Made by a program: the position numbers and the translations under genes | Shown: piece after piece, positions 32,587 to 47,151 of the stretch | How the letters are laid out: the number at the start of each line of letters is the position of its first letter | Position numbering within the stretch: position 1 is the first letter of the stretch | IMG/VR virus record: IMGVR_UViG_3300025085_000010 | Coordinates: 1-64,000 of that record | Reading direction: 5' to 3' (one strand) | DNA length: 64,000 bases | Source: a virus | The notes under the pieces: model-generated | Seen by the model: the letters and a program-made list of their open reading frames with translations, nothing else | Database searches by the model: none | What the model was told of the DNA's origin: nothing

Positions 32587-35025
32587 ATGTCGAAAGAAGA
32601 CTTGCCTTCTATTGATGATTTGGTCAATAACGATCTACCATCAATTGAAGATTTTATAACAGAAGAGAACGCAGAGGAACTCCCTTCTGTTGAAGACTAT
32701 ATTGAGTTAGAAGAAAGCACTCAAACCATAGAAGATGCAGACGGAAATACATTTGCAGAAATACAAGATATAATACCACCTTGGCCAGAACTGGTCAGAA
32801 TGATTAATGATGTTAGATCAGATATTCCTGACATTCCAGAAGTAAAATATTATGATAAAGAACTTGAGGAACTTGCAGAACAGATTAGTAATCTTCCTGA
32901 AGTCAGATACTATGATAGAGAAGTAGAAGCAATATGTGATCAGGTAGATCTTGTAAGGGAACAGATCAAAGTTCTACCTGAGGTCAAGTATTATGATGAG
33001 CAAGTTGATGCTATTGAAGATAGAATTGACACTCTTCAAACTGAGGTAACAAACTTACCAGAGGTCAAATATTATGATGCTGAGATCGCAGCAATTTGTG
33101 AGGCTATTGATACGGTAAAAGCATCTATTCCACAGTTTCCTAAGTGGGTTAATGAAATAAATGAAGTTCCAGACTTCTCATGGATTGGTAAAACTTTTAG
33201 TGTTATTGATGATGACTTTGTAAAGGTTAACGATACTATTGAAGGACTAAGAGGAAAGGTTGAATTTGATCTTGAACAACTTTCTGAAGATGTTGAAACA
33301 AAGCATTTTAATAGCACGATCAAGATTGAGAATGACATCTCCAATCTGAGTGAAAAAGTAGATACTCGTATTGATGAAGAGAAAGATAAGATCTGGAAAG
33401 AACTCAGATCATCATCTCTCAAGATGTGGGAGTACCATAAAGAGTTTAAAGACGATGATCGCAAACTCAAGAAACAAATTCTTGGGGAATATAATACTCT
33501 CAAGCAAAACATTAATAAAGAACTTAAGGAGATTAATTACACCAGCACCAAGACTGATGAGTTACTTCTAAAGTATTTTACTGAGCTAAGAGAAGAGATC
33601 TCAGGACTTCCAGAAGTTAAGTATTATGATAAAGATATTGACTATGTAAAATCTGATATCAAAGGACTCTATAAAATTATAGAGGAAATTAAATCATCTC
33701 AAAAACAACTGAAAGAAGAGCAAGAACTCCTAGCAGAGACAAATGTTCCTCTTGGGATGGACTCCCCAGATACAAATAATCCAGACCCTCTTACGCCACT
33801 TGATCAGAACTTTGTTACTCTGGATCAGTTGCAGACACACTACAAGAGATTTGTAGAGAGGGTACAGTATCAACTCGGATCTATCGGTGGCGGTGGTGCA
33901 GGATTTATTAGAGATCTTGATGATGTAACCTTTGATGCTACAGATGGTCAGTTACTGATCTATAACTCATCTACATCAAAATGGGTTGGTATTGCCAGCA
34001 CTGCAGTTGGTGGTGGAGATGCATCTACATTAGCAGAAAATACAACAGGAACGAACCTTGTACTTTCAGGAAATTTAACAGTTGCAGGTATTGCAACATA
34101 TGAAGATGTAAGAAATATAGATTCTATCGGTATTGTTACTGCAAGAAGTGGAATTAAAGTTCTAGATGGTGGCATCAACGTAGTTGGTGTTTCCACGATT
34201 AGCACTGGTGTTGGTACAATTCATGTTGGTGTTGGATCGACAGCACTTTTGGTTGAAGGTGATGCAAGAGTAACTGGTATCCTTACAATTGGACAAGGAT
34301 CAATTACTTTAGATCCAAACACAAAACAAGTCACTGGTATTGATGAAATCGTTGTTGGATCTGGAGCATCTTTATCATTAGCACCTCTATTCGCCAGTTC
34401 AGCCAAGTTTGTTATTGATTATTCTTCATTAACTTTACAAGGATATAACTCAAATAATGAAGGAACTTATGAAAGGCAAAGCACTTCTTTTGTACTAAGC
34501 ACTGCACCAACTACATCTGGTAGTGCTAGATTCCAAGAGACAAGTGGATTTTATTACTTCTTACATGAAAGTGATAATTCAAAAATAATTATTTTCAATA
34601 TAGTTACTGGAAACTGGGACGCAGTTCATAGTTTTGGATCTGATTTTTCTTCTCCAAGTAGTGGGACACTAGTAAATCCAGTATCAAATTATTCTTTTGT
34701 TACTCCAGTTAGAGCTAATTTTGATGACACTGGCAGAGCATATCCAGGATCTGGTTTTGGAGTTGTATATAAAACGACAGTTAGTGAGCAAACACAATCT
34801 ATTGGTATTGCAACTGCAAGTTCTTTAGTTGTATCTGGTATTGCAACTGTTTCAACGGCATTCTATATGCCACAATACACAACATCGGCAAGAGATGCAG
34901 CTACCTTTGCTGAAGGTGCGATGATATACAATACAACAACTAAGAAAATGGAGTTCTATAATGGATCATCCTGGCAGTCGTTGCCTGGAATGTCGCTTGG
35001 TCTTACTGTGGCACTTGATGGATGA
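32587..35025 (+). CDS. Segmented coiled-coil fibre-like virion protein with PEVKYYD repeats (812 aa)
   Basis: Five (L/I)PEV(K/R)YYD repeats punctuate heptads. Also a GGGGAG linker, a DLDDV...LIYNS...KWV fibre motif and C-terminal GAMIYNTTTKKMEFYNG..W. TAAATA at 32539-32544. Confidence 0.7.
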   Translation: MSKEDLPSIDDLVNNDLPSIEDFITEENAEELPSVEDYIELEESTQTIEDADGNTFAEIQDIIPPWPELVRMINDVRSDIPDIPEVKYYDKELEELAEQISNLPEVRYYDREVEAICDQVDLVREQIKVLPEVKYYDEQVDAIEDRIDTLQTEVTNLPEVKYYDAEIAAICEAIDTVKASIPQFPKWVNEINEVPDFSWIGKTFSVIDDDFVKVNDTIEGLRGKVEFDLEQLSEDVETKHFNSTIKIENDISNLSEKVDTRIDEEKDKIWKELRSSSLKMWEYHKEFKDDDRKLKKQILGEYNTLKQNINKELKEINYTSTKTDELLLKYFTELREEISGLPEVKYYDKDIDYVKSDIKGLYKIIEEIKSSQKQLKEEQELLAETNVPLGMDSPDTNNPDPLTPLDQNFVTLDQLQTHYKRFVERVQYQLGSIGGGGAGFIRDLDDVTFDATDGQLLIYNSSTSKWVGIASTAVGGGDASTLAENTTGTNLVLSGNLTVAGIATYEDVRNIDSIGIVTARSGIKVLDGGINVVGVSTISTGVGTIHVGVGSTALLVEGDARVTGILTIGQGSITLDPNTKQVTGIDEIVVGSGASLSLAPLFASSAKFVIDYSSLTLQGYNSNNEGTYERQSTSFVLSTAPTTSGSARFQETSGFYYFLHESDNSKIIIFNIVTGNWDAVHSFGSDFSSPSSGTLVNPVSNYSFVTPVRANFDDTGRAYPGSGFGVVYKTTVSEQTQSIGIATASSLVVSGIATVSTAFYMPQYTTSARDAATFAEGAMIYNTTTKKMEFYNGSSWQSLPGMSLGLTVALDG

Positions 35026-35050
35026 TAAATAATAAGGAGTAATCACTCTT

Positions 35051-36829
35051 TTGATGGCTAAGAACGGACGCTGCCCTGCAGGACAATACTACTGTTATAC
35101 TGATAAAGTATGCAAACCAATTCCTAAGGGATTTAGGGTTGTAGGACCTTCTGGAATGCTTCGTAAAGAAAATGGTCATTCTGTGGATGACAATACCGAA
35201 ACCAAAAAGAATGGTAACGGTAATGGAAATGGTAATGGTAATGGTGGAGGAGTAAGTGAATCGAAAAGTGGTGATTCTTCTCTGCGTGACTGGTTTGGCA
35301 AGAGTAAGTCTAGTGATGGCAAGCCTGGTTGGGTTCAACTGGGTGGGAAATACTCTGGAAAACCTTGTGCCAAGCAACCAGGACAAACCACAAAGCCAAA
35401 GTGCGGTTCTTCAAAAATGAAACGCAATCTCTCTAAAGATGAGGAACAAGCAGCGTTTCGTAGAAAGAATAAAAAAGATCCAAATCCAAATAGATCAGGG
35501 AAGGCAATTAACGTGAATACTGAAGAATTTACAACACTACCTTTACAGATAGAAATCCCAGATAATATTAGAGATTTCAATCTTGGACTTATGTTCCGTG
35601 AAAGTTTGGATATAAACAGTGGTATGCTCTTTATTTTTAATGAAGTGGCAGACCAGTCATTTCATATGACTGAAACAAAAATTCCTCTTGATATTGCTTT
35701 TATTAGAGAGGATGGCATAATCGAAAGTATTAAACAATTAGAACCATATGACGAGAACCCAGTTGCCTCAGATGGAGAGGTTCTGTGTGCATTAGAAGTA
35801 AATCGTGGATGGTTCGCGGAAAATAATGTAGAAGTGGGTGACGTGATTGATATTGAGGAAGGCGAGAAAGATGCTTGCTACCATAAAGTCAAATCACGTT
35901 ATAAAGTTTGGCCAAGTGCATATGCGTCAGGAGCACTAGTCAAATGTCGTAAGAAAGGTGCTGCTAATTGGGGTAATAGCACAAAGAAGGAAGAAACTGA
36001 AATTAAAGAGAGTCACAAGAATCCTGAAAGTGTGAAAGGTATTGCCAAGGAACTTGATAAGGCTGTCGAGATGCACAAGAGTCAGGCAAAAAGACTCAGA
36101 AAATCTGGTGTATCTGAAGCATGTTGGAAAGGTTATGAAAAGAAAGGTATGAAGACCATGTTTGGAAAGAGATATCCAAACTGTGTTAAGAAAACCAAGA
36201 AAGAAGAAGTTGAACTTATTGATGAAAAGAAAGGATGCAACCACACTCATGAAGGTAAAGACTGTCCTGTTCATGGAATGTCTCCATGTGATGGACCTCA
36301 AGGTGGAAATGGAGGAAAACCAGGTCCAGATAAAAATTATGTAAAACCTATGGGCGAATCCATAGATGAGGCAGTTAGAGTTCCAGCAAAGACTGGAAAC
36401 ATCATCGATACTTATTTCAACTATAGAGGTAAGTATTATGCTTTAAAGATGTTCTTCCCTCAAATCTCAGTACCCAAAAAATCTGATGTTCAAGATCAGG
36501 TTTCTAAAGTATATCCTGGCGCGAAACTATTAACTTTTAACGTTTCAAGCTATGTACCAGGGCAACCACTCCTTCACGTCGAAGGAGCAGCATGGACGAA
36601 AAAATCAGGAAAAAATAAAGAAGGTGGACTCAACGAAAAAGGACGAAAGTCTTATGAAGCGCAAAATCCAGGATCTGACCTTAAAGCACCAAGCAAGAAG
36701 GTTGGAAATCCCAGGAGGGCATCCTTCTGCGCTAGAATGAAGGGAATGAAAAAGAAACTGACTTCATCGAAAACTGCAAACGATCCAGATAGCAGAATCA
36801 ATAAGTCACTTAGAAAGTGGAATTGCTGA
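35051..36829 (+). CDS. Modular basic, Cys-rich protein containing a DUF192-like domain (592 aa)
   Basis: GLMFRESL....GMLFIF.......FHM.ETKIPLDIAFI...ALEVNRGW......VGD is DUF192-like. Flanked by short K/C-rich modules. GATAAATA at 35024-35031 and AAGGAG upstream. Confidence 0.75.
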   Translation: MMAKNGRCPAGQYYCYTDKVCKPIPKGFRVVGPSGMLRKENGHSVDDNTETKKNGNGNGNGNGNGGGVSESKSGDSSLRDWFGKSKSSDGKPGWVQLGGKYSGKPCAKQPGQTTKPKCGSSKMKRNLSKDEEQAAFRRKNKKDPNPNRSGKAINVNTEEFTTLPLQIEIPDNIRDFNLGLMFRESLDINSGMLFIFNEVADQSFHMTETKIPLDIAFIREDGIIESIKQLEPYDENPVASDGEVLCALEVNRGWFAENNVEVGDVIDIEEGEKDACYHKVKSRYKVWPSAYASGALVKCRKKGAANWGNSTKKEETEIKESHKNPESVKGIAKELDKAVEMHKSQAKRLRKSGVSEACWKGYEKKGMKTMFGKRYPNCVKKTKKEEVELIDEKKGCNHTHEGKDCPVHGMSPCDGPQGGNGGKPGPDKNYVKPMGESIDEAVRVPAKTGNIIDTYFNYRGKYYALKMFFPQISVPKKSDVQDQVSKVYPGAKLLTFNVSSYVPGQPLLHVEGAAWTKKSGKNKEGGLNEKGRKSYEAQNPGSDLKAPSKKVGNPRRASFCARMKGMKKKLTSSKTANDPDSRINKSLRKWNC

Positions 36830-43387: not shown

Positions 43388-43597
43388 ATGGATGACCTTT
43401 TAGATATGATTATTGCGGATGAGTCACCATCTCAAATCAGTGATGCACTTAAAGATGTTCTTTATGCAAAATCAGCTGAGAGAGTTGATGCATTTCGCCC
43501 TATGGTAGCTAATGCTTCTTTTGGTGGAGAAGATATTGAAGTCGAAACCGAGATCGAAGTTGATGATGAATCTATTGAAACCACAGATGGTGTCTGA
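43388..43597 (+). CDS. Small acidic prohead-core-like protein
   Basis: Highly acidic 69-aa ORF between gp20 and gp21 (position of T4 gp67/68). TATAAATA at 43354-43361. Confidence 0.65.
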   Translation: MDDLLDMIIADESPSQISDALKDVLYAKSAERVDAFRPMVANASFGGEDIEVETEIEVDDESIETTDGV

Positions 43598-43634: not shown

Positions 43635-43904
43635 ATGGCTACCAGAGCATTAGTACTTGGTAATGAGATTGCAGTTCCAACTGTAGCGGGATCAGCAACT
43701 TCTTTTACACAGGCAACTGTGATCAGAGTTGTTAATGTTTCTGGGAGCAGTGGAACCATCGGAGTATGTACCGTTGTTGGTGCTGCCACTACTAACTTTA
43801 TAACTGTTCCAGATGGAACTGTTGAATATGTTGAAAAAAAATCAACCGATGTTTGTTATGGTACAGGAACTTTAAGAGCTGCAAAAGTAGGATTCACAGG
43901 TTAA
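43635..43904 (+). CDS. Small beta-rich virion-associated hypothetical protein
   Basis: 89 aa, T/G/V-rich. Own late promoter TATAAATA at 43602-43609. Confidence 0.7.
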   Translation: MATRALVLGNEIAVPTVAGSATSFTQATVIRVVNVSGSSGTIGVCTVVGAATTNFITVPDGTVEYVEKKSTDVCYGTGTLRAAKVGFTG

Positions 43905-43908
43905 TCAA

Positions 43909-44559
43909 ATGAAACTTATCAGGGAAGAAATAGAATCAGTAGAGTTTCTTGTCGAACAAAAGAACGGCAAGAAATCTATGTATATTGAGGGAGTTTTCCT
44001 TCAGGGTAACATCAAGAACCGTAATGGTCGTATGTATCCTATGGAAACTCTACGCCGTGAGGTTGGTCGTTATAATGAGTCGAATGTTCAGTCTGGTAGA
44101 GCACTCGGTGAACTTGGTCATCCTGATGGTCCTACCGTTAATCTCGATAGAGTCTCCCATAAAATCGTATCTCTGAAAGAGAGTGGATCCAACTTTGTTG
44201 GAAAAGCAAAGATTTTAAATACACCTATGGGTAAAATTGCATCTGCTTTGATAGAAGATGGCGTAAAACTCGGTGTTTCATCTCGTGGTATTGGTTCATT
44301 AAAGCAGACCCGTGAGGGTGTTAACATAGTCGGTGACGATTTTATGTTAGCAACTGCTGCTGATATCGTTGCTGATCCTTCTGCACCTGATGCTTTCGTT
44401 GAAGGCATTATGGAAGGTAAGGATTGGGTATGGGATGGAGGCATTCTTCGTGAGAAGTATGTAGAAAAAACTTACAGAGAAATCAACACTCTTGTAACTC
44501 AGAAACAACTTGACGAGAAAAAGTTAAATTTATTTAATGATTTCCTTGCGAATCTTTAG
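43909..44559 (+). CDS. gp21: Prohead protease gp21
   Basis: MKLIRE, YIEGVFLQ..IKNRNGRMYP, ALGELGHP, GVSSRGIGS and DIVADPSAPDAFV. Confidence 0.97.
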   Translation: MKLIREEIESVEFLVEQKNGKKSMYIEGVFLQGNIKNRNGRMYPMETLRREVGRYNESNVQSGRALGELGHPDGPTVNLDRVSHKIVSLKESGSNFVGKAKILNTPMGKIASALIEDGVKLGVSSRGIGSLKQTREGVNIVGDDFMLATAADIVADPSAPDAFVEGIMEGKDWVWDGGILREKYVEKTYREINTLVTQKQLDEKKLNLFNDFLANL

Positions 44560-45756: not shown

Positions 45757-47151
45757 ATGTTCCAATCTGAACATCTGCAGGAAAAGTGGGCACCTCTCCT
45801 CAATCATGAGGGTCTTGATTCAATCAAAGACAATCACAAGAGAGCAGTGACCGCAGTCCTGTTAGAAAACCAAGAAAAATTCCTCCGTGAGCAATCCTCC
45901 TTCGAGCAAGGTGGAATGCTTACTGAGCAACCAACCAACCAAGTAGGAAACGGTGGATTCACCGGTTCCGCAACCGCAACAGGACCTGTTGCTGGTTTCG
46001 ACCCCGTACTGATCTCCTTGATCAGACGCTCCATGCCTAACTTGGTCGCATATGACCTGGCTGGCGTCCAACCTATGAGTGGACCTACTGGACTCATCTT
46101 CGCGATGCGTTCCCGCTACACCAACCAGTCTGGCACCGAAGCATTCTTCGATGAAGCAGATACCGCATTCTCTGGACAACCTAAGGGTCTTGATGATGCT
46201 AATGGTTTCAGTGGTGCTGCTGCTGGTTTAGGTACTACTTCACAGACAGGTACTAACCCTTCAGTCCTTAACCCAACCGGTAGTGCAGATAAGACTGCAT
46301 ACAACGTCGGTCAGGGTATGCGTACCGACTCCGCCGAATCACTCGACGGAACAGGTGCTAACGCATTCAACCAGATGGCATTCTCGATCGAGAAAGTCAC
46401 TGTAACCGCTAAGTCCAGAGCACTCAAAGCAGAGTACTCCTTGGAACTGGCACAAGACCTTAAGGCAATCCACGGTCTGAACGCTGAAGCAGAACTTGCT
46501 AACATCCTCTCTACTGAAATCCTTGCGGAAATCAACAGAGAAGTCATCAGAACCATCTATAAGGTTGCTGAACCAGGTGCTGCTGCTAACACCGCTACTG
46601 CTGGTGAGTTTGACCTGGACATCGACTCCAACGGACGTTGGTCTGTTGAGAAGTTCAAGGGTCTTCTTTTCCAAATCGAGAGAGATGCGAACGCAATCGC
46701 ACAAAGAACTCGTCGCGGGAAGGGCAACATCATCATGTGTTCTGCTGACGTAGCGTCTGCACTGACCATGGCTGGTGTGCTCGATTACACCCCTGCACTC
46801 AACGCTAACCTGAACGTTGATGACACCGGTAACACCTTCGCTGGTGTTCTCCAAGGTAAGTATCGTGTATACATCGATCCTTATTCGGCAAACGTCGCTG
46901 CTAACCAATACTACGTTGTTGGTTACAAAGGTTCTTCACCTTACGACGCAGGTATGTTCTACTGCCCATACGTTCCCCTTCAGATGGTTCGTGCCGTTGG
47001 CGAGAACAGCTTCCAACCAAAAATTGGATTCAAGACCCGCTACGGTATCATCGCAAACCCATTTGCACAGGGTACTTCCCAGGGATCTGGTGCTCTTACG
47101 AGCAACAGCAACCGCTACTACCGTCGCGTTACTGTCAAGAACCTTATGTGA
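45757..47151 (+). CDS. gp23: Major capsid protein gp23
   Basis: KWAPLL, LLENQE, DPVLISLIRR, GVQPMSGPTGLIFAMR, KSRALKAEYSLELAQDLKAIHGL and FQPKIGFKTRYG. Confidence 0.99.
   Translation: MFQSEHLQEKWAPLLNHEGLDSIKDNHKRAVTAVLLENQEKFLREQSSFEQGGMLTEQPTNQVGNGGFTGSATATGPVAGFDPVLISLIRRSMPNLVAYDLAGVQPMSGPTGLIFAMRSRYTNQSGTEAFFDEADTAFSGQPKGLDDANGFSGAAAGLGTTSQTGTNPSVLNPTGSADKTAYNVGQGMRTDSAESLDGTGANAFNQMAFSIEKVTVTAKSRALKAEYSLELAQDLKAIHGLNAEAELANILSTEILAEINREVIRTIYKVAEPGAAANTATAGEFDLDIDSNGRWSVEKFKGLLFQIERDANAIAQRTRRGKGNIIMCSADVASALTMAGVLDYTPALNANLNVDDTGNTFAGVLQGKYRVYIDPYSANVAANQYYVVGYKGSSPYDAGMFYCPYVPLQMVRAVGENSFQPKIGFKTRYGIIANPFAQGTSQGSGALTSNSNRYYRRVTVKNLM

Follow-up and report, generated by a model that had tools for sequence, protein, structure and literature searches.

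A T4-GC119 cyanophage polyprotein of shuffled mini-modules, predicted to be cut by the gp21 prohead protease as head cargo

Introduction

What becomes of a phage protein that is built as a chain of unrelated small modules, joined by short linkers that end in Glu? The question is raised by a gene in IMG/VR virus record IMGVR_UViG_3300025085_000010, of which positions 1 to 64,000 (hereafter the window) are a portion of a T4-like cyanomyovirus. T4-like cyanophages are among the most abundant ocean viruses, and the family to which this gene belongs, T4-GC119, is very widespread among cyanophages. The open reading frame (ORF) runs on the + strand from TTG 35051 or ATG 35054 to 36829 and encodes 592 residues from TTG or 591 from ATG. 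A first, sequence-only reading of the locus proposed a polyprotein that is loaded into the prohead and cut at its Glu-ending linkers by gp21, the prohead protease, into about nine small pieces that might bind DNA or act as injected effectors.

In T4, the capsid-targeting tag is the decapeptide MKTYQEFIAE (PMC8442874). Residues 4 and 7 of the tag serve targeting, and its processing is governed by residues 8 and 10 and blocked by Asp at position 10 (PMC9026906). Here we examine the window protein and its relatives for modules, junction motifs, shuffling, virion presence and tags. We consider it probable that the gene encodes a virion polyprotein of T4-GC119 (PHROG 727) that is diced by gp21 as head cargo.

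Results

Nine small modules in one widespread chain

The polyprotein matches the phrog_727 profile with an E value of 6.3e-158, and the T4-GC119 annotation is carried by its homologues SSM1_115, Syn19_101, SSSM7_236 and S-P4 gp060. Searches returned at least 8000 near-length homologue candidates, all at E 0.001 or better, while a representative library held 18,859 sequences at that threshold, 751 of them at 1e-30. Matches occur in 492 phage records, nearly all from cyanophages, and the C-terminal module (M9) is single-copy in each.

The module strings and the eight junction Glu residues singled out in the sequence-only reading are all present, each at its position. They delimit nine pieces, M1 to M9 (Table 1), and the predicted architecture is that of beads on a string, in which autonomous mini-modules are connected by flexible acidic linkers. 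The AlphaFold2 (AF2) model, built with 147 sequences, has a predicted template modeling score (pTM) of 0.26 and consists of separately folded units: hairpins at residues 12-39 (the M1 strands), the DUF192 domain, helices at 275-302 and 326-350 (the latter in M5), a hairpin at 362-380, a compact unit at 446-500 (pLDDT, the predicted local distance difference test score, 85-89) and helices at 529-589. The pLDDT falls below 50 over 42-93, behind the M1 strands, and over 148-190, 267-272, 310-327, 344-355 and 383-443, the last of these covering M7. Seven of the eight proposed junctions lie at or beside such a stretch, and the eighth, at 511, lies where pLDDT is about 57-61. Treating M8 and M9 as a single unit was rejected: a separate model of residues 441-592 (pTM 0.41) has a low-confidence linker at 511, and we therefore count the two as separate units. 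The hydrophobic-x-Glu triplets IRE and IIE inside DUF192 fall within beta-strands of the AF2 model.

Cutting after the eight Glu residues would yield fragments of 4.0-12.6 kDa. As described earlier, most modules are basic: seven of the nine pieces have an isoelectric point (pI) of 9.2-10.5, the exceptions being the DUF192 piece, at pI 4.05, and the Cys/His piece, at 6.3; the whole polyprotein carries a net charge of +32 with a pI of 9.4. Four pieces contain two Cys each and two contain three, with one Cys in DUF192 and none in 321-356 or 441-511.

Only two modules have a firm family assignment. The DUF192-like domain noticed at the outset was borne out by Pfam (PF02643, E 8.4e-25, residues 166-268; score 87.2 bits, cutoff 27), and it matches PDB entries 3m7a and 3pjy by sequence and fold (Foldseek, TM 0.68-0.71 on the target). 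M9 is a DUF6321 domain (PF19846, residues 520-590, 77.1 bits against a cutoff of 28.5). Beyond these, a search for functional clues with Pfam, over the full chain and module by module, gave just a sub-threshold DUF5872 likeness in M4, the sole match when single modules were scanned at E up to 10, and the same scans found no peptidase or enzyme domain. All PHROG matches of the modules belong to the unknown-function class, Foldseek against the PDB matched only the two DUF192 structures, and a BFVD search returned only DUF6321 proteins. A wide fold search with the M8-M9 model reached Z scores of at most 5.0, with T7 Gp2, phi29 p6 and ribosomal proteins among the ties, which is under the noise level that the tool states, and nothing was drawn from it.

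A hydrophobic-x-Glu motif marks the module joints

The sequence-only reading took all eight junctions to be gp21-type sites. Inspection of the window protein supports this for six, which read hydrophobic-x-Glu (VSE, IEE, IKE, VSE, IDE and IDE), with four of the eight meeting the strict I/L-x-E form; TEE and HVE do not fit. None of 121 close homologues departs from E356, E440 or E511, and the E440-A441 pair is likewise fixed; the P3 residue is L, I or V in all 121 at site 356 and V, M, I or L in 118 at site 440, with P2 and P4-P6 free to vary. Three further sites are largely kept: V/M/I-S-E occurs at site 70 in 100 of the 121, the remainder having V-D-E shifted by one residue; the M3 end is I-x-E in 101, with a shifted L-E-E in the others; and site 392 is I/L-x-E in 95. 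At site 159 the P3 position holds T, A, N or S and is not hydrophobic.

Diverse relatives were next considered through 449 unique 12-residue stretches upstream of module starts. In 309 of these contexts the motif [ILVMF]-x-E ends no more than five residues ahead of the module, against 90 +/- 8 (maximum 114 in 1000 trials) when residues are shuffled within each 12-mer, a comparison that overstates independence and gives no strict probability, as the sequences are kin. Control motifs ending in Asp, Lys or Gln occur in 24, 31 and 26 contexts. The motif Glu peaks sharply at position -1 (187 cases), and in 37 of 42 junction types, defined by the previous and the next module, half or more of the contexts contain it. 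Linkers contain 3.05 motifs per 100 residues, compared with 1.03 in modules. For M6 and M8 the pattern is stronger still: 104 of 111 unique contexts upstream of M6 contain hydrophobic-x-Glu, and all 35 upstream of M8 have Glu at P1 with V, L, I, F or M at P3. Because neighbors and flanking residues differ so widely, these data argue for selection on a short linear motif despite the kinship of the sequences. A recombination signal at the DNA level was rejected as the source of the joints, since P2 and the identity of the P3 residue vary, which indicates that selection acts on the peptide.

Modules are shuffled, and break points fall at the Glu linkers

Hidden Markov models for eight modules were mapped onto 157 diverse sequences and revealed 88 module orders among them. 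P-SSM2 gp114, for instance, reads M2-M6-M4-M9, so that M6 stands ahead of M4 in inverted order, and S-SSM7 protein 236 carries M1 at its C-terminus. Break points of BLAST alignments to the window protein cluster at 67-75, 152-159 (where ends of high-scoring segment pairs accumulate at the M2 site), 257-273, 313-319, 381-398 and 511. Within eight residues of the eight sites, a zone that makes up 23% of the length, lie 59% of segment starts and 68% of segment ends. Comparison of homologues had been named beforehand as a test of the proposal, and module gain, loss and reordering, together with the homology break points, do fall at the Glu linkers.

Some modules also occur alone. M9 forms an 83-residue gene in the Pelagibacter podophage Lederberg and an 84-residue gene that immediately follows the capsid gene in the T7-like P-SCSP1c; M4 forms the 56-residue Roseobacter phage CRP-902 gp70. 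None of these podophage genes, for M9 or for M4, has a leader peptide, and the M9 copies begin at the module itself.

A gp21-type protease, virion homologues and a targeting tag in relatives

The presumed processing enzyme is encoded in the window (Table 1). As the sequence-only reading had noted, the major capsid protein gp23 of this phage contains a matching LTE: aligned by phmmer to T4 gp23 from 6uzc, its M-L-T-E falls on T4 F-L-T-E65. Mature T4 gp23 chains have 456 residues, that is, 521 - 65, which places E65 immediately before the first mature residue.

Virion presence, which the original proposal depended on, has been reported for homologues. For purified S-SM1 virions, the entry of cluster 119 in Supplementary Table 8 of Sullivan et al. 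2010 reads 'Structural protein, Y, 13', and the gp23 row has 119 counts (PMC3037559). In S-SCSM1, 45 proteins were identified by mass spectrometry of CsCl-purified particles and ORF29 is annotated as a virion protein (PMC9602691). The published virion proteomes are tryptic searches. S-SCSM1 ORF29 begins with M1, as does the window protein. Four modules are mapped or visible in the S-SM1 homologue: VLE, IQE and FQE immediately precede three of them and QNE, with a non-hydrophobic P3, precedes M9. This homologue has no T4-like tag.

Such a tag is found in other family members. A T4-like decapeptide opens 8 sequences in a set of 147 diverse representatives, and among short forms of the family it opens 21 of 115, with examples such as MKTFADFINE, MKEFNQFVKE, MKKFNQFLEE, MIKFSQFLDE and MKTFSQFLLE, and P-TIM40 protein 114 reads MKNFAQYIEE followed directly by M9. 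The nearest named isolates to the tag-bearing metagenomic members, Syn19 and S-SSM4, do not have it. Tag-like cores such as FKSFIDE, FSAFLEE and FAKFMAE also stand between modules in about 20 of the 157 representatives, which suggests that single genes, each with a tag, were fused to give the polyproteins.

The 79-kb contig of this phage was scanned with two patterns (the decapeptide and a shorter seven-residue form) over 692 ATG-start candidates. The sole match is a 407-residue cytidylyltransferase, T4-GC190, at contig positions 77120-78343 (+), outside the window. It starts with MKSFFQFLNE, a near copy of the T4 tag, followed by Ala, and the tag is conserved in P-SSM4, S-RIM2, ACG-2014f and Syn10. 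T4-GC190 is reported in S-SM1 virions by Sullivan et al. 2010 (PMC3037559), and other cyanophage virion proteomes report related nicotinamide mononucleotide adenylyltransferase (NMNAT)/cytidylyltransferase-like enzymes. T4-GC190 can thus serve usefully as a positive control where the tag of cyanophages is concerned, and MKSFFQFLNE would explain why the cytidylyltransferase recurs in cyanophage virion proteomes.

Table 1. Positions in the window of the polyprotein gene, its modules and related features; each of M1 to M8 ends with the codon of its junction Glu
Feature	Position	Strand	Remarks
Late-promoter-like ATAAATA (T4-type), then AAGGAG ribosome-binding site	35024..35039	+	Read from sequence; predicted function
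Polyprotein gene	35054..36829	+	In-frame TTG 35051; member of PHROG 727 / cyanophage cluster T4-GC119
M1 + Asn-Gly repeat linker	35054..35260	+	Three Cys, beta-hairpins; ends VSE, residues 68-70
M2 (SLRDWF...PC...PKC)	35261..35527	+	Net charge +12; ends non-canonical TEE (159)
M3 = DUF192 domain	35528..35860	+	Acidic, pI 4.05; ends IEE (270)
M4	35861..36010	+	Two helices, Cys pair; weak DUF5872 likeness; ends IKE (320)
M5	36011..36118	+	Single basic helix, variable among relatives; ends VSE at invariant Glu356
M6 (CWKGY...NCV)	36119..36226	+	Beta-hairpin; ends IDE (392)
M7	36227..36370	+	Cys/His-rich, predicted disordered; ends IDE at invariant Glu440
M8	36371..36583	+	Compact beta-beta-alpha-beta domain, pLDDT 83-89; ends non-canonical HVE at invariant Glu511
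M9 = DUF6321 domain	36584..36826	+	Net charge +16, helical, ends ...WNC
gp21-type prohead protease	43909..44559	+	Pfam Peptidase_S77 (PF03420), E 4.3e-36; presumed processing enzyme
LTE, residues 55-57 of major capsid protein gp23	45919..45927	+	Aligned to T4 gp23 LTE65/A66 site

Discussion

A head-loaded polyprotein and the points that weigh against it

Shuffling at the Glu linkers, a gp21-type protease, the LTE site of gp23 and the tag in relatives all point to a head-loaded polyprotein. On the strength of these features, the chain is probably processed within the capsid to yield a set of small individual proteins. The precursor would be built into the prohead core, likely by way of basic modules, or of M1, with an affinity for the acidic scaffold, a loading route that we infer because the window protein has no N-terminal targeting tag. 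There, gp21 would cut after Glu at about five to eight junctions, and the resulting 4-13 kDa, mostly basic pieces may remain with the packaged DNA in the manner of the T4 internal proteins. More speculatively, and as a guess by analogy, the pieces might leave the head with the DNA at infection.

Several observations weigh against this assignment. The window protein starts MAKNGRCPAG... and lacks the ten-residue tag, which has aromatic residues at positions 4 and 7, a hydrophobic one at 8 and Glu at 10. All 120 close homologues likewise begin with M1 and have no T4-like tag, and no internal tag-like motif was found in the window protein. A hydrophobic P3 is absent from sites 159 and 511, and just 6 of 121 close homologues keep site 320, which leaves five of the eight sites both canonical and conserved. 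M4 has the motif within five residues upstream in 42 of 111 contexts only, and in the examples seen it stands about ten residues upstream, ahead of a Lys/Gly extension. An invariant Glu right before a module could in part be a residue intrinsic to that module, and the kinship of the compared sequences, noted above, applies here too. Finally, cleavage at the junctions is a prediction for every family member, and so is residence in the head interior, as opposed to elsewhere in the virion. The initial proposal of a head-loaded, gp21-cut polyprotein is thereby upheld in its outline and weakened by the missing tag and the incomplete set of sites.

Alternative readings

The alternative that fares best, although we judge it unlikely, is a modular virion protein that is never cut, for instance a DNA-condensing or surface-associated one, in which hydrophobic-x-Glu is a linker or a module cap unrelated to proteolysis. 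The missing tag, the non-canonical junctions and a neighborhood that encodes fiber-like structural proteins would all suit such a protein. It would nevertheless require unrelated folds to share one common N-terminal cap, and it does not readily account for constraint on P3 and P1 while P2 and P4-P6 vary. The preference for Glu over Asp, 309 contexts to 24, fits the block that Asp at position 10 imposes on processing in T4 and so matches the behavior of T4 gp21. Moreover, relatives carry T4-type cleavable leaders, whereas the podophage copies start at the module itself.

Slightly less probable still is an accessory scaffold or core protein, that is to say, an assembly factor cut by gp21 in the prohead whose pieces are mostly expelled before packaging, as for T4 gp22, gp67 and gp68. 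The protease-site evidence applies equally to such a protein, its gene sits in a block of head and packaging genes, with gp16 and gp17 on either side, and T4 core proteins are likewise cut at several sites (PMC9026906). Mature CsCl-purified virions, however, contain homologue peptides (13 counts in S-SM1 against 119 for gp23), the modules are strongly basic where scaffold is acidic, and both the extreme shuffling and the stand-alone copies in phages with other head types poorly suit a conserved assembly role.

Cutting by another protease or at another time, such as by a host protease or after delivery, is very improbable: for polyvalent phage proteins, processing that follows injection has been proposed (PMC5512222) and the window protein has no head-loading tag, but scans of the polyprotein find no peptidase domain, the motif matches the T4 gp21 rule as does the gp23 site of the phage itself, and nothing indicates a different protease of such specificity.

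Comparison with known systems

Returning to the head-cargo polyprotein, its closest parallels are the T4 internal proteins IPI, IPII, IPIII and Alt, with which it shares small basic head-packaged products (predicted here), a hydrophobic-x-Glu motif and a gp21-type protease, as well as near-identical ten-residue tags on family members and on the cytidylyltransferase of this phage. The T4 proteins, in contrast, come from separate genes and are cut once or twice. In T4-GC119, as many as nine unrelated modules share one chain with a predicted site at every joint, the module order is reshuffled between phages, and the window protein is untagged. In light of its sequence features, the T4-GC119 polyprotein would represent a new form of the T4 internal-protein system.

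The T4 core proteins gp22, gp67 and gp68 offer a second parallel. Each polypeptide receives several gp21 cuts in the prohead and some small fragments stay in the head (PMC9026906), and multiple cuts in one polypeptide are also predicted here. Those proteins form an acidic, conserved scaffold, unlike the basic, folded, Cys-containing mini-domains of T4-GC119, some of which are also stand-alone genes.

The phiKZ cleavage motif is S/A/G-x-E. Inner-body and ejection proteins of the giant phages phiKZ and SPN3US are reported to be cut after Glu by a gp21-related protease, sometimes at several sites (PMC9026906, PMC5694885, PMC7411985). They resemble the present case as head-internal cargo with short Glu-ending motifs and differ from it in their motif, in their large size and in not being chains of shuffled mini-modules.

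Polyvalent proteins, as described by Iyer, Burroughs, Anand, de Souza and Aravind in 2017, carry many unrelated domains that travel with the DNA and are thought to be cut into functional units (PMC5512222); that paper mentions neither cyanophages nor DUF192. The likeness lies in the many unrelated domains of one chain, nine modules here and 88 architectures among relatives. Polyvalent proteins contain their own zincin-like MPTase and enzymatic anti-defense domains, neither of which was found here, where gp21 would do the cutting in trans. Tiny shuffled modules, a predicted trans-protease site at each joint and the lack of any detected enzyme or peptidase domain set the cyanophage chain apart from all of the compared systems.

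A broader interpretation, which we put forward tentatively and rate well below the polyprotein assignment, is that a nearly universal gene family of T4-like cyanophages acts as a combinatorial cargo cassette. Tagged stand-alone genes would have been fused, with tag remnants serving as protease joints, and a phage-specific cocktail of basic, Cys- or metal-stabilized modules might be ejected into the host, where it would form a rapidly evolving early arsenal, directed for instance at host defenses. If the reading of the T4-GC119 protein as gp21-cut head cargo is right, it would account for the entry of 'non-structural' proteins such as the cytidylyltransferase into cyanophage particles, would extend T4 tag-and-protease loading to a polyprotein format that is unusual in tailed phages, and would mean that a large shuffled set of small proteins enters cyanobacteria alongside the phage DNA. 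A literature search found no description of the T4-GC119 polyprotein family, of DUF6321 or of the targeting tag in cyanophages.

Further features of the modules

Inspection of the individual modules reveals several minor features. The Asn-Gly dipeptide repeat that follows M1 (35201-35251, residues 51-67) differs in length among close homologues and is an indel hot spot. M7 has the pattern C-x-H-x-H ... C-P-x-H ... C (residues 393-440) and may bind a metal, which is perhaps required for folding; other CxxC...C modules replace it in S-RSM4, S-SCSM1 and S-SM1. Within DUF6321, LNE (36629-36637, residues 527-529) is invariant in 121 cyanomyovirus homologues, some tblastn matches start only after it, and it is replaced by LNA in the Pelagibacter podophage Lederberg and by LTA in the T7-like P-SCSP1c. 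This triplet may be a ninth cut site or a mere lineage difference.

Neighboring genes

The window keeps the T4 gene order gp16, gp17, gp18, gp19, gp20, gp21, gp22, gp23. The polyprotein gene, between gp16 and gp17, is flanked by an 812-residue fiber-like gene and the large terminase gene, and both the ATAAATA and the AAGGAG listed in Table 1 lie inside the 25-nt gap downstream of the former, the preceding structural gene. That upstream ORF (32587-35025, +) gave no Pfam match over the cutoff and probably encodes a fiber-like structural protein. Its N-terminal half is acidic and coiled-coil-like, with five copies of a PEVKYYD-containing repeat, and its C-terminal half is rich in Gly, Ser and Thr. 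Two small ORFs on the + strand, at 43388-43597 (69 residues) and 43635-43904 (89 residues), neither with a Pfam match, separate the portal gene from gp21. The 69-residue product is very acidic, and the pair lies where T4 has its prohead core genes 67 and 68.

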